DNA of 64,000 nucleotides from a virus (IMGVR_UViG_2897081166_000001:1-64000); one strand, 5' to 3'; numbered from the stretch's first letter, positions 4,769-61,730 are shown. Program-made: numbers and translations. Notes: a model not told the origin generated them from the letters alone.

Positions 4769-5776
4769 ATGGCTGAGTTCTCCGCGCCGTTCGACGGCTC
4801 CCCGATCGCCACCCAGTCCCAGTGGTCCCGCATGGCCCGCAGGTGGGGGATCGACGGGGTCCACGCCTCCGACCCCGCCGACACCGCCCTCAAGATCAGC
4901 GGAAACGGCAGCGGCAACGTCGTCCTCCAGGCAGGCGAGGCCTTCGTCAACGGGTTCTACTACCTCAACGACACGACGAAGAACATCCCGATCACCGCGA
5001 ACCTGGGCACGACAGCCCGCGTCGACATGGTCGTCCTGCGGGCCTCCATGAGCGCCAAGACCGTCCGCGCCGCCTACAAGACCGGCGGCAGCAGCGCCCC
5101 AACCCTCGCCGCCGACGAGAACGGCGACTACGAGATGCCGCTCGCCCAGTGCACCGTTGCCGCCGGATCCTCCGTCGTTACCGCCGTCAACGTTCTCGAC
5201 CGCCGGTGGTTCACCGACCGCGGCGCCGTCCCCGGTCTCCCCGGCGCCCGACGCCCGAGCGTGAGGGGGCAGCTTCTCGTCGAGGGCACGAAGCTGTACG
5301 TCGGCGACGGGGCCGGCTGGCAGTGGCTCACGTCGCCGGGTGTGGAGGAGGACACGTACACCCCGCAGTGGACCGTCGGCAGCACCACCATCCAATGGGG
5401 TGCGTCAGCCACGAACTTCGGCAGGTACACGGTGCGCGGCAAGCGCGTCGACCTCCTGATCCACCTGGTCCCGTCCGCGAACCCGATCTCCTCCACCGAG
5501 CCGATCATGGTGTCTTTGCCGCCTGGATACCCGGCCGCCTCCCACCACCGGTCAATCCTCAACTGGGCATTCACCGGCACCGCCGGCGACGGCATCGGCA
5601 GTGCCGTCATCTACCCCACCCTGTCCACCACGAAGATCGCCCGCCTGCGGTACGCCATGAGCAACAGCGTCAGCAGCACCGTGCCGCCCGAGGTGTTCAC
5701 CATGCACACCAACCAGCCGTGGCCCATGCGCGCCGGGGATGTCCTGACCATCGACGGCTCCTACTGGCTCGCCTAA
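4769..5776 (+). CDS. Minor tail / baseplate protein
   Basis: Position in tail operon; GEAFVNGFYY, RVDMVVLR, YEMPLA motifs resembling actinophage minor tail proteins. Confidence 0.7.
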   Translation: MAEFSAPFDGSPIATQSQWSRMARRWGIDGVHASDPADTALKISGNGSGNVVLQAGEAFVNGFYYLNDTTKNIPITANLGTTARVDMVVLRASMSAKTVRAAYKTGGSSAPTLAADENGDYEMPLAQCTVAAGSSVVTAVNVLDRRWFTDRGAVPGLPGARRPSVRGQLLVEGTKLYVGDGAGWQWLTSPGVEEDTYTPQWTVGSTTIQWGASATNFGRYTVRGKRVDLLIHLVPSANPISSTEPIMVSLPPGYPAASHHRSILNWAFTGTAGDGIGSAVIYPTLSTTKIARLRYAMSNSVSSTVPPEVFTMHTNQPWPMRAGDVLTIDGSYWLA

Positions 5777-28333: not shown

Positions 28334-28486
28334 CTAGACCGGCCATTTCGTGGCTTCGATCTTCCGCGCCTCGGCCTCGGTGATCAGCGACTCGTCTATG
28401 TACAGAACTACTTTGTTGTGCTGCACGTCTGTCCAGGCGCTGACACCGTGCGGCATTCCTGACACGCGAAGAACCAGGACTCGCAT
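28334..28486 (-). CDS. Small hypothetical protein
   Basis: MRVLVLRVSGMP..., between repressor and integrase. Confidence 0.5.
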   Translation of the reverse strand: MRVLVLRVSGMPHGVSAWTDVQHNKVVLYIDESLITEAEARKIEATKWPV

Positions 28487-28599
28487 AGGTCCCCCATACC
28501 AATCCGAGCGTGGCCCCCTCGTCGGTATCACACCATCAGATCACATCTTGGAACGGATTGTGGAGGGTTCCGTGGTGCTGAATGAACTTCTTGGGGCGT

Positions 28600-57168: not shown

Positions 57169-59172
57169 GTGGCTGACAGCCAGAAGGCCGACCTGTGGAA
57201 GGCCATCAAGCACCCCCGCATGAGGCCCTGGCTGACAGTCGCCGCCGAGGTCCCCGCCACCTTCGCCTCCCACCACTATTGGGGCGACTCCGTACCCGCC
57301 GCGATCGGCCTCACCGTCGCCGCAGGAGTACTCACCGCCGCAACATGGTGGGCAGGCGAGGGGACACGGCCCGGCCGGCGTATCCACGCCACCCTGTCCA
57401 CCGGCCTCGGCACCTCCTACCTCGTCGTCGGCACCGCCGTCGGCCCGTTCGACCCGGCGCTCGCCTCCACCCTCGTCATCGGCGGCGCCGTCGCCGCCGG
57501 GTCGTGGAACATCCGCCAAGCCCTCCGCGTCAACGTCGACCCGCAGAAGGAAGGCGGCAACGCCGAGACCGGTGTCCTCGTCAAGGCCATTGGTGACGCC
57601 AAGGTCGCCCTCCGCGGCAAGCCGAAGGTCGAACCCAACAAGGTCACCGTGCCCCTCCAACTGGCCGCCGGGCAGGTTACCTCCGACGACCTCGGCAACC
57701 GCATCAAGCACATCGCCGGCGAACTCGGTGTCTCCCCGACCAGCATCCGCGTCATCCCCGACCCCGACGACGCCGCCCGCGCCACCCTCGTCGTCGTCCC
57801 CAAGGACGAACTCAAAACCAGCACCATCTGGCCCGGCCCGTCCAACCCCGGCGGCAGCATCACCGACCCGATCGCCATCGGGATCTACGAGGACGGCGAA
57901 GTGGCGGTGCTGTGGTTCCCCTTCGACTCCCAGTCCAGGCGGAACGCCACGCACTTCCTGGCCGCCGGGATGAACGGCTCCGCCAAGTCCACCGGCATCA
58001 GCGTCGCCATGGCGGAAGTGCTGACCAAGCCCGACGCCATCGTCTGGGCGGTCGACCCCTCCAAGGGGCAGCAGACGTTCGCCCCGTTCCTGCCGTACCT
58101 CGACTGGGTCGAGATGACCGAAGCCGGGGGTAACGAGATGATTGACGCCCTGCCGCAGGTCATCACCGCCCGCGCGAACGAGCTCGGCCGCCACGGCTTC
58201 AAGAACTGGACTCCGCAGGCCCACGATCAGCTCGGCATGCCGTACATGATCGTGTGGATCGAGGAAGCGGCCAAGTTCTTCCGCAACGGCACCGAAATGG
58301 AAGGCCTCGTCATGGAGGCCCGGTCCGCCGGGATCAGCGTCATCATCAGCCTCCAACGCCCCTCCGCCACCAGCATGCCCACCGACGTCCGCGAGCAGCT
58401 CGGCGGCGTCCTCTGCTTCGGCGTCAAAGGCTCCACCACCGCCGACATGGCCCTCCCCGACGACGTCCGCGACGCCGGCGCCCGCCCCGAAGCCTGGGAA
58501 AACCGCAAACCCGGCTACGCCTACCTCGTCGCCCCCGGCGTCGACGAAGACCGCTACGCCACCCCCCTGCGCACCTACCTCATCGACGACGACCAGATCA
58601 CCGGGGCCCTCGCCATCCTGCCCCGCACCCCCATCGACCCCGTCACCGCCGCAGCAGCCGGTGACGCCTACGCCAACCGCACCCGATACGACGCTGACAC
58701 CCCGCTGACCAGCGGTGACAGCCCACGACAGGAGACCGTCACCATGACCAAGGACGACGCCCAGGCCGCCGAGAAGGCGCTACTGGAGAAGCAAGTCGAC
58801 CGCGAGATCGACGCCATGGTCGGCGACGACCCCGACAACGACGGGTTCGTACCCGACGTCGACGCCGACCAGGAGATCGCCCCGGTGAGCGAAGTGTGGT
58901 CGTTCGGGCAGGCCCAAGCCCCCGTCGAGGAGAAAACGCCGGAGGCCGGCATGGACGCGCTGATGGTGATGCTCGCCGAGTTCCGGGCGGAAGAGCGGGA
59001 GTTCATCGGCCCGAAAGACTTCGGCCCGTTCGGGAAGGGGCAGCGCATCGGAAGGTCCCGTTCCTGGGTGTCAATGGCTCTCGGGGACCTGTCAGATGCC
59101 GGGATTCACCTCCAGGAGACGGAGCAGGCGGGGGTCTATCGGCTGCTGTACCCGGAGCTGGCGGAGGTCTAG
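57169..59172 (+). CDS. traB: TraB-like FtsK/SpoIIIE conjugal DNA translocase
   Basis: N-terminal TM helices; Walker A GMNGSAKS; Walker B IVWIEEA; ARSAGI...SLQRP; C-terminal winged helix. Confidence 0.85.
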   Translation: MADSQKADLWKAIKHPRMRPWLTVAAEVPATFASHHYWGDSVPAAIGLTVAAGVLTAATWWAGEGTRPGRRIHATLSTGLGTSYLVVGTAVGPFDPALASTLVIGGAVAAGSWNIRQALRVNVDPQKEGGNAETGVLVKAIGDAKVALRGKPKVEPNKVTVPLQLAAGQVTSDDLGNRIKHIAGELGVSPTSIRVIPDPDDAARATLVVVPKDELKTSTIWPGPSNPGGSITDPIAIGIYEDGEVAVLWFPFDSQSRRNATHFLAAGMNGSAKSTGISVAMAEVLTKPDAIVWAVDPSKGQQTFAPFLPYLDWVEMTEAGGNEMIDALPQVITARANELGRHGFKNWTPQAHDQLGMPYMIVWIEEAAKFFRNGTEMEGLVMEARSAGISVIISLQRPSATSMPTDVREQLGGVLCFGVKGSTTADMALPDDVRDAGARPEAWENRKPGYAYLVAPGVDEDRYATPLRTYLIDDDQITGALAILPRTPIDPVTAAAAGDAYANRTRYDADTPLTSGDSPRQETVTMTKDDAQAAEKALLEKQVDREIDAMVGDDPDNDGFVPDVDADQEIAPVSEVWSFGQAQAPVEEKTPEAGMDALMVMLAEFRAEEREFIGPKDFGPFGKGQRIGRSRSWVSMALGDLSDAGIHLQETEQAGVYRLLYPELAEV

Positions 59173-59178
59173 GGGGCG

Positions 59179-59350
59179 GGGGTGTCAGCGCTGACACCCC
59201 TCCTGACCTGCGGTGACATCAGATTCACACCAGATTTTCTTGATCAGCTGTCAAGACGGGTGTGAATCAGGGGTGTCACCGCCCCTGGCGGCTCGATCTC
59301 TATAGGTCATGCGCGTGCGCGCGCGTGACTGACGGCGGACTGACATCACC
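59179..59350. repeat. clt-like repeat/palindrome cluster
   Basis: GGGGTGTCAGCGCTGACACCCC; GATTCACACC...GGTGTGAATC; repeated TGACA/TGTCA. Confidence 0.55.
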
Positions 59351-59379
59351 GGATTTCCAACCAACCCAAAAGCTAGGAA

Positions 59380-60219
59380 ATGGTTCAAATGGTGCAACTC
59401 TTTGGTCTGTCGTCGGGCGTGCCGCGATGCGTTGCCGCGACGAGCGAGAGCCCCTGCCGTGAAGCTGCCGCCATCGCCACTCCGGTGGCGCTGTGCGAGA
59501 CACACCGGCTGAGGATCGCGCTCGACCTCACCCCAGAGGTGCTTGGCCGCGCCTTGGTACGCCGAGCCACTCCTCCCGCCCCAGGCAGGCCGGCACCGCG
59601 GAGCATGGCGAGCATTGCCACCTCAGCCCAGCCGGCAGAGTTCATCGGAGGCATAGCGGCCGGGCGGCATGCACCCGTTGTCTACTTTCTGCTGAACGGC
59701 AGTCGAGTAAAGATCGGCTACACCCGGTCCTTGGTCACGCGCCTTCGAGCGCTTGCCCTTGGAGAATCGGCGGTTGTCCTGCTTCTCAGCGGCGGTCGAC
59801 AACTTGAGAGCGCCCTGCATGCAGAGTTCGCGGCGACCAGGGTCAAGGGCACCGAGTGGTTCGAGATCACCGCGCCGCTCCTGCGCTACATCGGCGGCAG
59901 GCTTGCGCGCCCCGCCGTCGCCATCCAGCCGGACCTGGACCTGGATCGGGACGAGCCCCGTGAGCCGCAGGACGTACCGGCGCGGCCCCGCATGTCCGAA
60001 GCGCGCCAGGCGTTGCTGAGCCTCGTGAAGCAGGCCAAGGCAGAGGGGTGGGACCACATAGGGCCCCGTCACGTCTGGGGGCAGCATCGGCACACCCTGC
60101 GCCGGAGCCGACCGTGGGTGAGCGCTGAACTTGCACGACTAGCTGATGAAGGCGTTCTTTGCCGCACAGACGAAGCAGGCGTCTACACCTTCCGCGACGA
60201 CGATTTGGAGACAGCATGA
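59380..60219 (+). CDS. GIY-YIG/T5orf172-like nuclease fused to a TraB-like winged helix
   Basis: VVYF...VKIGYT..L..RL..L...E..LH..F...R..GTEWF; C-terminal RSRPWVSAELARLADEG...EAGVY. Confidence 0.7.
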   Translation: MVQMVQLFGLSSGVPRCVAATSESPCREAAAIATPVALCETHRLRIALDLTPEVLGRALVRRATPPAPGRPAPRSMASIATSAQPAEFIGGIAAGRHAPVVYFLLNGSRVKIGYTRSLVTRLRALALGESAVVLLLSGGRQLESALHAEFAATRVKGTEWFEITAPLLRYIGGRLARPAVAIQPDLDLDRDEPREPQDVPARPRMSEARQALLSLVKQAKAEGWDHIGPRHVWGQHRHTLRRSRPWVSAELARLADEGVLCRTDEAGVYTFRDDDLETA

Positions 60220-60647
60220 AAAGCCCCGAAACGGACGGAGGTCGGGCCAAGGTACTTGCTGCAGCACTCCGCACCTGGACCACCGTCGACAACGACCCCG
60301 AACCCCCTGTCGCACGCCTGGAAATCCGCTACCCACCCCACTGGGCGTTCACCTCCACCAACCCCATCACCGCAAGGCAACAGAAGCGGCTCCTCGCGTT
60401 CCTCCGTGACGACCTCGCCGAGAACCGGCCCGGATACTCCACCCCTGAACGCGCCGCCGCGATCATCCACGGGCTCATCACCGAACACGCCGCCGCCGGC
60501 CGCACCCGCATCACCACCGCGGACCTCGCCGAAGCCGCACCCCGGATCGGCCGGTCCCGTACCTGGATCGCCGCCCACGTCACCGACCTCATCGACGGCG
60601 GTGTGCTTCGCGAGACAAGACGCCCCGACACCTTCCGCATCAACTAG
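60216..60647 (+). CDS. Protein with TraB-like winged helix
   Basis: RIGRSRTWIAAHVTDLIDGGVLRET. Confidence 0.65.
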   Translation: MKSPETDGGRAKVLAAALRTWTTVDNDPEPPVARLEIRYPPHWAFTSTNPITARQQKRLLAFLRDDLAENRPGYSTPERAAAIIHGLITEHAAAGRTRITTADLAEAAPRIGRSRTWIAAHVTDLIDGGVLRETRRPDTFRIN

Positions 60648-60656
60648 GAGACCACC

Positions 60657-61139
60657 GTGCAGCTGCCCGAGCAGCCCGTTGCCGGGCAGCCCGATCCCAC
60701 CGACCGCGCCGAAGTCCGCAAGCTCGCCCACGCCGTCGAGACCGTCCTCCTGGAGGAAATGGCCACCTACCACCGCGACACCACCCCGCTCCCCGCGGTG
60801 GGTGCTGCACCGCCTGTGCCGCAGCCAGGTCAGCCCCCGATGTCGCAGTGGGCGACCGACGCCAGCGGGGTCCTCAAGGCTGTGTCCGTGGCGTCCCTGC
60901 CGATCGGCGGGGCCCTGTGGATCGTCGGCCAGGTCGACCCGCTGACCTTGGGCATCATCCTCGGCTCGCCGGCCGCTGTTGCCTTGGCTGTGGCCCGACT
61001 CGTCGCGAAGGTCAAGGACGCCAACCAGGCTGTACCGCAGCCGGTCACCAACCACTTCCACGGCACCGTCCACCACGACGAGCGCATCGTCACCAGCACC
61101 ACCCGCGGCCTCATCGCGAACAACCGGAACCGAAACTGA
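60657..61139 (+). CDS. Two-TM membrane protein (Spd-like)
   Basis: PPVPQPG.PPMSQWATD followed by two hydrophobic helices. Confidence 0.65.
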   Translation: MQLPEQPVAGQPDPTDRAEVRKLAHAVETVLLEEMATYHRDTTPLPAVGAAPPVPQPGQPPMSQWATDASGVLKAVSVASLPIGGALWIVGQVDPLTLGIILGSPAAVALAVARLVAKVKDANQAVPQPVTNHFHGTVHHDERIVTSTTRGLIANNRNRN

Positions 61140-61217
61140 CCCAATCTGATCACTTCGCCCACCAGGCGACCCACCCGCAGATAACCTCCGAACGCACACA
61201 CCATCCCTGGGGGGACC

Positions 61218-61730
61218 ATGAGTACCGAAACACCGCCGCCAGCCGAACCACCCGCTGCTCCCGAAGCGCCGCCCATGCCCGCCGAACCCCCGGCCGCGGC
61301 ACCGAAGAAGCGGCCCTCACCGCTCCTCGCCGGAATCCTCGGCCTGGCCGTAGGCGCCGGCGCGGTCGGTGCAACCTGGGCGATCACCGCAAACCAGGAG
61401 CCGCCCGCACCAGCCACGTTCACCCTCACCGGCGCCTTCGCCCTGACCGAGGGCGCAACCAGAGACGGCGACGGTTGCATCGGCACCGAGGGCTACGACG
61501 ACATCGCTGAAGGAACGTCCGTCACCGTGTACGACGGGGCTGGGAAAGTGGCCGCCACTGGGAATCTCGGCAAGTCCAAGTACGCGGCGGGTGCCTGCGC
61601 TTTCGAGGTCAGCGTTCCGGACGTACCCAAGGGGGAGAAGTTCTACCAGGTCGAGGTGTCCCACCGTGGGAAGGTTCAGCTGTCCGGAGAGGAAGCTGAA
61701 GCCGGAGAGATGTCCGTGACGCTCGGCTGA
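61218..61730 (+). CDS. Membrane-anchored protein
   Basis: Pro-rich N-terminus, TM, C.G.EGYDDI..GT.VTV. Confidence 0.7.
   Translation: MSTETPPPAEPPAAPEAPPMPAEPPAAAPKKRPSPLLAGILGLAVGAGAVGATWAITANQEPPAPATFTLTGAFALTEGATRDGDGCIGTEGYDDIAEGTSVTVYDGAGKVAATGNLGKSKYAAGACAFEVSVPDVPKGEKFYQVEVSHRGKVQLSGEEAEAGEMSVTLG

Follow-up and report, generated by a model that had tools for sequence, protein, structure and literature searches.

Gene flow in Streptomyces runs mainly through conjugation of the TraB type. To our knowledge, the forces that shape TraB-clt specificity are poorly understood. The accounts of pSVH1 and pWTY27 describe a C-terminal winged helix with which TraB reads the clt repeats (PMC4447253, PMC3583192), and in pWTY27 these are TGACACC repeats footprinted by its TraB homologue (PMC3583192). 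The sections of these accounts that are drawn on here mention neither a nuclease nor small paralogues carrying the TraB winged helix (PMC4447253, PMC3583192).

Two kinds of T5orf172 proteins are relevant to this study. T5orf172 nucleases can be active and sequence-directed, as the reported loss of cleavage in the E180A mutant of Odn indicates (PMC8263062). Odn (Gp88), the origin-directed nuclease of the Vibrio phage ICP1, carries at its N-terminus a copy of the RepA_N domain of a hostile satellite, targets a replication origin and has a demonstrated activity (PMC8263062). The free-standing T5orf172/GIY-YIG homing genes of phages are described as gene-sized insertions between conserved genes, sporadic in presence and located at boundaries of genetic exchange, with a modular, exchangeable DNA-binding part that is mostly a CapR, DUF723 or DUF4397 zinc-finger domain (10.1101/2023.03.23.533998).

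The gene examined here, ORF2, was found next to traB in a Streptomyces phage-plasmid of the pZL12/pCQ4 kind. The analysed stretch of 64,000 nucleotides is referred to as the window. Its traB is a plasmid_TraB equivalog, and a repeat cluster at and after the traB 3' end has the motif and the position of the pWTY27 clt (PMC3583192). Like Odn, ORF2 joins a T5orf172 core to a DNA-binding domain homologous to the reader of short repeats at an essential cis site, and a chimeric origin is deduced in the same way for both (PMC8263062). Unlike Odn, ORF2 has a C-terminal TraB-type winged helix, shares its element with the protein that it mimics, lies beside its presumed target, which is a transfer locus, and has a presumed nuclease activity. 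With the phage homing genes ORF2 shares the features listed above, but its reader is the winged helix of a translocase, and it resides in the conjugation module of an actinomycete phage-plasmid. The original prediction had regarded a fusion of nuclease and winged helix as without known precedent. This must be qualified for Odn, which comes close: its T5orf172 nuclease took over, as a copy, the DNA-binding domain of another element's origin-binding protein (PMC8263062).

Results

Three consecutive + strand ORFs end in a TraB-type winged helix, and the C-terminal string quoted for each in the original prediction was located (Table 1). The traB product matched the NCBIfam plasmid_TraB model with an E value of 1.4e-249 and 830 bits (cut-off 800) and shares ~89-93% identity with its counterparts on related phage-plasmid contigs. 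Judged by the closest homologue, the second ATG (59389) is the probable start of ORF2, which gives 276 aa. The most likely start of ORF3 is the ATG at 60216, in an ATGA overlap with the ORF2 stop, which gives 143 aa and not 162. The GC3 of ORF2 is 0.74 versus 0.90 for traB, pointing to foreign composition; among the other neighbouring ORFs 3/4 lie at 0.88 to 0.92 and the fourth at 0.76. A sigma-70 promoter scan of 58800-60800 gave no site.

Table 1. Features of the traB-ORF3 region, in window coordinates.
Feature	Position	Strand	Description	Basis
traB	57169..59172	+	membrane-anchored FtsK-like dsDNA transfer translocase	NCBIfam plasmid_TraB equivalog
TraB C-terminal winged helix	58930..59172	+	recognition helix from ~59043	aligns with ORF2 and ORF3
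clt-like intergenic region	59173..59379		TGACAC(C)-type repeats in both orientations	
22-bp perfect palindrome	59179..59200		directly after the traB stop	inverted repeat I4, two inverted repeat copies
GC-rich near-palindrome	59303..59329			invariant columns in 6 alleles
Putative mobile cassette	59073..60215	+	last ~100 nt of traB, variant intergenic region, ORF2	
ORF2, 279 aa	59380..60219	+	conserved Cys/His N-terminus, T5orf172/MUG113 core, linker, TraB-type winged helix	
ORF2 T5orf172/MUG113 core (GIY-YIG superfamily), aa 97-175	59668..59904	+		pLDDT, invariant residues, Foldseek
ORF2 TraB-type winged helix	59947..60192	+		TraB HMM, AF2 model, WH-fold matches
ORF3, 143 aa	60216..60647	+	N-terminal domain without assigned fold, TraB-type winged helix (60435-60647)	

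Homology of the three winged helices, which had been proposed from the sequence, was borne out by matches to the TraB model, by pairwise BLASTP and by the AF2 models of ORF2 and ORF3. Residues 190-271 of ORF2 matched positions 552-632 of plasmid_TraB (E 3e-14; 9.4e-16 in the genome search), and ORF3 matched positions 564-632 (E 2.3e-9; 564-634 with E 7e-11 in the genome search). BLASTP aligned TraB with ORF2 at 36% identity over 74 aa (E 2e-7), TraB with ORF3 at 33% over 70 aa (E 6e-8), and ORF2 with ORF3 at E 6e-4. The winged helix of ORF2 was modelled as helix-strand-helix-helix-strand-strand with a pLDDT of about 87-93 and produced many matches to solved winged-helix domains, with Z up to 9.8 and an rmsd of 2.5 over 74 residues. 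In the recognition helix ORF2 equals the pWTY27 TraB homologue at 8/9 positions.

The second part of the predicted fusion, a GIY-YIG-like domain, was upheld by matches above the Pfam cut-offs. Residues 102-169 of ORF2 matched MUG113 with an E value of 1.2e-8 and 35.9 bits (cut-off 22.3) and T5orf172 with an E value of 2.3e-6 and 28.5 bits (cut-off 20). The AF2 model of the core has the order strand-strand-helix-strand-helix-strand-helix with a pLDDT of 91-95. Foldseek against viral models generated 18 matches at E <= 1e-3; of those that carry a name, many are GIY-YIG, T5orf172 or MUG113 proteins. One predicted viral GIY-YIG/T5orf172 protein, for example, aligned with an rmsd of 2.3 over 83 columns. 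Foldseek against the PDB produced none at E <= 1e-3, the top hits being CRP-type proteins matched via the winged helix, and a PDB sequence-profile search returned chance-level hits only (E about 0.8) and no solved GIY-YIG chain. The wide VIA-align search barely probed the core, since among the matches listed all were winged-helix domains over residues 201-279. PADLOC gave a single sub-threshold hit (E 0.007). In the phage collection the core found weak matches only, in Gordonia phages, and none of these proteins has the winged helix.

Y102, K111, I112, G113, R121, E143, H147, R154, E159, W160 and F161 are invariant in 16/16 aligned ORF2 homologues. Y102, K111, R121 and E159 are candidate catalytic residues, and R121 and E159 were matched to the catalytic Arg and Glu of the Odn type by motif position only (PMC8263062). 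A Lys occupies the position of the second Tyr of classical GIY-YIG enzymes, a point against the homing reading proposed below. The core is the presumed nuclease. Homologues with the three-part build of ORF2 exist, and in two relatives, P0084 and P0094, the Cys/His N-terminus and the winged helix are retained but the T5orf172 core is lacking.

TGACAC(C)-type copies start at 59181, 59192, 59214, 59225, 59259, 59272 and 59341, with one more at 59067 inside traB, and 8/30 TSACAYC sites of the window fall within 59067-59347. The intergenic regions of four ORF2-free alleles contain 9, 10, 9 and 9 copies of TGACAC, and those of two ORF2-bearing alleles 3 and 2. The commonest 8-mer in the ORF2-free alleles is CTGACACC. 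Beside ORF2 the window retains three perfect and several degenerate repeats. As RNA the 22-bp palindrome folds at -27.7 kcal/mol (z -2.3); it is conserved in the ORF2-free alleles and may double as a terminator hairpin. The near-palindrome is conserved in every one of the 6 alleles compared and is largely common to pCQ4, and it is a possible operator or promoter element.

ORF2 is missing from four of the five related viral contigs found with ORF3 (L028, L029, L031 and L032), whose traB stops at 4807 and whose ORF3 begins at 5001. The fifth, L026 (identical in sequence to L002), has a divergent ORF2 at the same site, frameshifted by a 2-nt deletion just after the KIG motif. The more distant pCQ4, pZL12, L003 and L016 are likewise without ORF2 at the traB-ORF3 site. 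The window and its five relatives thus display a presence/absence polymorphism at one site, with two occupied and four empty, and ORF2 is not a backbone gene.

The two ORF2 copies, in the window and L026, are 55-67% identical, while the flanking genes are 89-91% identical. Sites at which the window equals L026 and differs from all four ORF2-free alleles were classified as derived. The upstream 1874 nt of traB contain 4 derived sites, and the last 130 nt of the gene contain 8 (Fisher p 1e-7). The intergenic region has many, 60216-61215 has 0, and 61216-61515, a stretch of degrading flank alignment, has 1-4 per 100 nt. In the two occupied alleles the derived sites begin at 59074, in the TraB recognition helix, and stop exactly at the ORF3 start codon. 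At this right junction a ribosome-binding site and a 4-nt start/stop overlap are recreated. Elsewhere the window backbone most resembles that of L028, which is free of ORF2. The pattern suggests that ORF2, the intergenic region and the last ~100 nt of traB, which encode variable recognition helix and wing residues, are passed on together as a cassette. Because only two ORF2-bearing alleles were compared, common descent of the segment, and not homing, could explain the shared derived sites.

ORF3 directly follows the intergenic region in all relatives without ORF2. Its homologues form 72 clusters, all of about 126-147 aa and without a Pfam family, and every source-named one is a Streptomyces 'hypothetical protein'. 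The AF2 model is weak (pLDDT 63.9), with the helix-strand-helix-helix-strand-strand pattern visible, and the protein atlas contained no ORF3 match above 0.87. By homology ORF3 is a paralogue of the TraB winged helix that belongs to the conserved backbone and lies outside the cassette. Two genes beside the tra gene of pZL12 are reportedly needed for transfer. The original prediction had also placed a non-catalytic clt-binding modulator at this locus, and ORF3 is a plausible, if putative, candidate; with low confidence we suggest that it is an accessory or regulator that binds DNA and acts on the traB-ORF3 intergenic region.

The fusion was expected to occur together with traB, and it adjoins traB in all three lineages with readable context (the window, L002/L026 and L041). 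In L041 the tail of the T5orf172 protein is 57% identical to the adjacent TraB equivalog over 81 aa, with 20/21 identities in the recognition helix, and at least three perfect CTGACACC repeats lie right beside the gene. Other T5orf172 tails are homologous to the C-terminus of an adjacent Nocardiopsis-type translocase (L007 and L046, E 2e-18), of an adjacent FtsK_SpoIIIE protein (L027, E 1e-18) and of an upstream membrane protein (L006, E 2e-14). A nuclease-like gene with a tail homologous to an adjacent reader protein is therefore present in the window and four further lineages, and the tails of different lineages show no kinship with one another. A rule that every T5orf172 gene of the clade copies a neighbour domain was rejected, since 16/24 loci whose tail measures at least 35 aa are without a tail homologue nearby, many of the match-less contigs being short. 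The fusion of T5orf172 with a TraB-type winged helix was detected in 1/401 Streptomyces genomes, with 6 candidates scored per genome.

Discussion

We propose to read ORF2 as a selfish gene of the TraB-type conjugative elements of Streptomyces, free-standing, homing-endonuclease-like and putatively steered to clt, and give this reading a probability of about 0.5. The C-terminal winged helix would have been captured from a TraB translocase and would steer ORF2 to the clt repeats of the TGACAC(C) type that lie beside traB. Once an element with ORF2 encounters a relative that lacks it, as might happen after conjugation, ORF2 would cut at the edge of the repeat cluster, and repair by recombination would bring in ORF2 along with the neighbouring intergenic region and the traB 3' end. 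Support comes from the domain homology, the conserved core residues, presence/absence at one site, the cassette-like inheritance, the repeat cluster and the recurrence across lineages. We infer DNA binding to the TGACAC(C) repeats, cleavage, homing and a means of self-immunity. The clt-targeted nuclease of the original prediction has gained comparative support from the TGACAC(C) repeats, the adjacency to traB in three lineages and the near-identical recognition helices of L041, and its targeting and cleavage are retained here as putative.

Some observations fit homing less well. The ORF2 winged helix is just 36% identical to that of its own TraB, so the specificity of ORF2 may differ. Repeats persist beside ORF2 in the window and beside the T5orf172 gene of L041, so that homing as proposed does not account for self-immunity. 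Self-protection by loss of repeats was considered; it fits the window and L026 and fails in L041, where the repeats are kept.

ORF2 could instead cut the clt of competing or incoming elements of the same TraB/clt type, and so block or destroy them by exclusion or incompatibility, in which case ORF2 need not be copied. The domain logic is that of ICP1 Odn (PMC8263062). The altered TraB recognition helix and the fewer canonical repeats of ORF2-bearing alleles would be expected of elements escaping their own weapon, and relatives with the canonical repeat set could be its targets, although ORF2 and the protein that it mimics belong to one element. We nonetheless consider this rather unlikely as an alternative to homing, as one ORF2 copy is frameshifted, and ORF2 sits exactly beside its presumed target and is inherited with it as a cassette, a hallmark of homing. 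The two readings are not exclusive and can hold together.

ORF2 might also bind the intergenic region without cutting, as a domesticated endonuclease like CapR that regulates the downstream ORF3/spread operon or modulates TraB loading. Domesticated repressors related to T5orf172 are described (10.1101/2020.11.28.402263), P0084 and P0094 lack the core, and the element tolerates repeats beside the gene. The invariance of the core residues in 16/16 homologues argues for retained chemistry, however, and a regulator essential to the operon would not be missing from most relatives, and we judge such a role unlikely.

As a further alternative, ORF2 might nick or cut clt so that TraB can thread circular DNA; it adjoins traB and clt and shares the DNA reader of TraB, and we know of no account of how a closed circle passes a hexameric pore. 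That ORF2 would open or process the circle in this way, as first suggested, is highly improbable, as the gene is missing from 4/5 close relatives and from pCQ4, pZL12, L003 and L016, TraB is described as moving unprocessed DNA (PMC4447253, PMC3583192), and a single tra gene plus clt is reported to suffice for pWTY27 transfer (PMC3583192). The other function originally suggested, cutting of competing elements, or else homing, suits the data better.

Homing of ORF2 into the clt edge may be one case of a wider phenomenon. We tentatively suggest, while regarding it as doubtful, that actinobacterial dsDNA-conjugation modules host 'neighbour-mimicking' T5orf172 nucleases that time and again capture the DNA reader of a translocase or transfer protein encoded next to them, insert by homing at the border of the site which that protein recognises, and drive exchange and diversification of TraB/clt modules. 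If so, traB recognition helices and clt repeats would be dragged as one cassette among plasmids, AICEs and phage-plasmids. TraB and the nuclease would be natural protein pairs for testing winged-helix recognition. If the proposed reading of ORF2 is true, the principle of Odn, a nuclease that borrows the DNA reader of its victim, would extend from a Vibrio phage-satellite pair to the conjugative elements of actinomycetes. A nuclease that reads the repeats of TraB and moves with the recognition helix and clt would then provide a concrete mechanism by which transfer specificity turns over and related elements come into conflict.

Domain organization of traB, ORF2 and ORF3

The window is phage-plasmid DNA of high GC, from a viral record that is 81,292 bp long and rated 96% complete. 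Its genes include siphovirus tail genes (Dit, Gp37-like, M23/SLT protein), an amidase lysin, an ATP-dependent ligase, a DnaB-type helicase and a C5 cytosine methylase, together with the Streptomyces conjugation module traA-traB, as in the phage-plasmids pCQ4 and pZL12, which are the nearest named relatives. traB, ORF2 and ORF3 are consecutive on the + strand and together span 57169-60647.

Features of the traB region of the window
Feature	Position	Strand	Description
traB	57169-59172	+	NCBIfam plasmid_TraB equivalog (E 1.4e-249)
Near-palindrome	59303-59329		GC-rich; invariant in all six aligned alleles, largely kept in pCQ4; surrounding intergenic sequence varies
ORF2	59380-60219	+	N-terminus with conserved Cys/His, T5orf172/MUG113 core, TraB-type C-terminus
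ORF3	60216 (most likely start)-60647	+	C-terminal stretch matches TraB model positions 564-632 (E 2.3e-9)

The original prediction was that three consecutive proteins share the winged helix of TraB and that one of them carries a GIY-YIG-like core. This is borne out by profile, BLASTP and model evidence. The ORF2 C-terminal stretch matches TraB model positions 552-632 (E 3e-14), its core exceeds the Pfam cut-offs for T5orf172/MUG113, and the three-way similarity of TraB, ORF2 and ORF3 was also recovered by pairwise BLASTP. In the AF2 model of ORF2 both core and winged helix are confident. Many solved winged helix domains superpose on the latter (Z up to 9.8), and for the core, similar predicted models were found among viral GIY-YIG/T5orf172 proteins. 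The ORF3 model is weak, with the helix-strand-helix-helix-strand-strand pattern of the ORF2 winged helix still visible. Y102, K111, R121, E143, H147 and E159 are invariant in 16/16 aligned ORF2-family sequences, which argues for retained chemistry in the core.

The recorded protein for the ORF2 gene has 204 aa and begins at Met76. The longer reading is probably right, since homologues conserve the Cys/His region upstream (C17, C26, C39 and H42; window 59380-59604). The most likely ORF3 start overlaps the ORF2 stop as ATGA.

ORF2 is an insertion and ORF3 a backbone gene

Five related viral contigs were retrieved with ORF3 as query (L026, L028, L029, L031 and L032). Four of these are empty alleles, in which traB is followed by a 193-bp intergenic region and then ORF3, with no ORF2 between; TraB is ∼89–93% and ORF3 88–97% identical to the window. 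The fifth, L026, whose sequence equals that of L002 from a Streptomyces genome, is occupied by ORF2 at the same site and has a 2-nt deletion immediately 3' of the KIG motif. Its ORF2 is only 55–67% identical to that of the window, while the flanking genes are 89–91% identical. The more distant relatives pCQ4, pZL12, L003 and L016 have no ORF2 at the traB-ORF3 site.

The alignments place the right junction of the insertion exactly on the start codon of ORF3 (GTG in the empty alleles), and the ORF2 3' end provides ORF3 with a new ribosome-binding site. GC3 is 0.74 for ORF2 and 0.90 for traB; of four further neighbouring ORFs measured, three have 0.88 to 0.92 and one 0.76.

Full-length ORF2 relatives with a TraB-type tail are few (P0002, P0004, P0005, P0083 and P0085), and the fusion was found in 1/401 Streptomyces genomes searched, with six candidates scored per genome. 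The TraB-type winged helix is also borne by P0097, by P0100 (fused to a WhiB domain), by P0091 (fused to an FtsK gamma domain) and by the small proteins P0084 and P0094, which join it to the Cys/His N-terminus of the ORF2 family without the T5orf172 core. In S. olivoverticillatus (L003, 5986-10033) a T5orf172 homologue whose tail is unrelated lies upstream of traA-traB-ORF3, and the traB-ORF3 junction is empty.

A putative exchangeable cassette

The empty allele L028 is closest to the window over traB (93–99% nucleotide identity in most traB windows) and ORF3 (89–95%), while the intergenic region of the window is only ∼62–66% identical to every relative. Sites were counted at which the window equals L026 and differs from all four empty alleles. 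traB has 4 such sites in its first 1874 nt and 8 in its final 130 nt (Fisher p 1e-7), the intergenic region has many, and the first 1 kb right of ORF2 (60216-61215) has none; from 61216 to 61515, where the flank alignment degrades, there were 1–4 per 100 nt. The eight traB 3' sites alter one recognition-helix residue (Met in occupied, Gly in empty alleles) and three wing residues. By this distribution, the intergenic region and ORF2 appear to behave as one exchangeable unit with the final ∼100 nt of traB, a pattern suggestive of homing that rests on two occupied alleles.

The intergenic region is a strong clt candidate

The clt of pWTY27, the cis transfer site, consists of the last 16 bp of the tra gene and the 159 bp that follow, and footprints of the TraB homologue cover its four TGACACC repeats (PMC3583192). 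By motif and position, the window intergenic region is a strong clt candidate. In both orientations together, TGACAC occurs in the intergenic region 9, 10, 9 and 9 times in the four empty alleles, where CTGACACC is the commonest 8-mer, 6 times in L003 and 3 times in pCQ4. In the two occupied alleles only 3 and 2 copies are perfect and others are degenerate; the diverged centre that both have in common contains a new inverted repeat. TSACAYC is concentrated in 59067-59347 (8/30 sites of the window); the only other small cluster of the motif has three sites in ∼100 bp (28441-28547). In L026 and the empty alleles a repeat copy (CTGACAC) includes the traB stop TGA; the window has TAG (59170-59172) and has lost the copy. 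ORF2 and the pWTY27 protein agree at 8/9 positions in the recognition helix, which serves only as a hint.

Tail borrowing by T5orf172 proteins

The tail of each T5orf172 homologue was compared with the remainder of its own locus in 34 loci, 24 of which had tails of at least 35 aa. A match was found in 8/24 usable loci, 7 of them strong. In the window and in L002 the tail matches the TraB of the same locus. In L041 a 200-aa T5orf172 protein is encoded 20 nt 3' of a TraB equivalog (E 1.6e-252); the tail of this protein is 57% identical to the TraB C-terminus over 81 aa, with 20/21 recognition-helix residues identical. For L007 and L046 the match is to a translocase of Nocardiopsis type (51% over 68 aa, E 2e-18) and for L027 to an FtsK_SpoIIIE protein encoded on the other strand (E 1e-18); L034 has a weak match. 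Borrowing is not limited to translocases, since the C-terminal domain of the T5orf172 protein in L006 (4787-6717) is shared with an upstream 398-aa membrane protein other than TraB (40% over 82 aa, E 2e-14).

Tails of different lineages are unrelated to one another, and those of L041 and P0005 group with the L041 TraB, not with the window ORF2 group; the reader domain was therefore captured or converted more than once. The T5orf172 gene abuts the repeats in both L041 and the window; in L041 it lies between traB and a TGACACC/CGACACC cluster, and in the window the repeat cluster lies between traB and ORF2. Judged from these alignments, borrowing from a neighbour is a recurrent theme. As a general rule for T5orf172 genes it is ruled out, 16/24 usable loci having no match within the locus.

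ORF3

ORF3 lies directly 3' of the intergenic region in every ORF2-free relative examined and is nearly identical between occupied and empty alleles (98%, window versus L028), so it is not part of the cassette. Its homologues form 72 clusters of about 126–147 aa, with no Pfam family in any; every source-named cluster is a Streptomyces "hypothetical protein". ORF3 is unlikely to target the variable part of the repeats. The near-palindrome is a candidate site for it, and could be an operator for ORF3 or another regulator. Small Spd proteins of pSVH1 contact the C-terminal DNA-recognition part of TraB (PMC4447253), which offers a lead to the role of ORF3.

Discussion

T5orf172 proteins include active, sequence-directed nucleases (PMC8263062) and putative homing endonucleases whose DNA-binding parts can be exchanged (10.1101/2023.03.23.533998). 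The closest concept to ORF2 is Odn of Vibrio phage ICP1, a T5orf172 nuclease carrying a DNA reader copied from another protein; its DNA-binding domain comes from the origin-binding protein of the attacked element, and it cuts at the iterons of that protein (PMC8263062). By analogy with Odn, and from the insertion, cassette, repeat and recurrence evidence, we infer that the ORF2 winged helix would bind TraB-type repeats and that ORF2 would cut the flank of the repeat cluster in ORF2-free relatives. Repair from an ORF2-bearing copy would then spread the cassette, which is homing. Self-immunity, also inferred, is a real gap in this proposal, because in L041 perfect repeats persist next to the gene of a protein that has the recognition helix of TraB itself.

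ORF2 may instead be purely a competition weapon, or a domesticated DNA binder that does not cut, as the coreless relatives P0084 and P0094 would favour. The predicted processing of the element's own circle for transfer is unlikely, as ORF2 is missing from most relatives.

TraB with clt, homing-type T5orf172 nucleases and Odn-style domain capture are already known. Within the library of full texts searched, a T5orf172 nuclease-like gene was not linked to a TraB reader in print. GIY-YIG had zero occurrences among the matches listed for TraB, Streptomyces or AICE with GIY-YIG, and no Streptomyces conjugation paper was among the T5orf172 matches listed. The finding bears on both actinomycete conjugation and selfish nucleases, and is of real interest to both fields.
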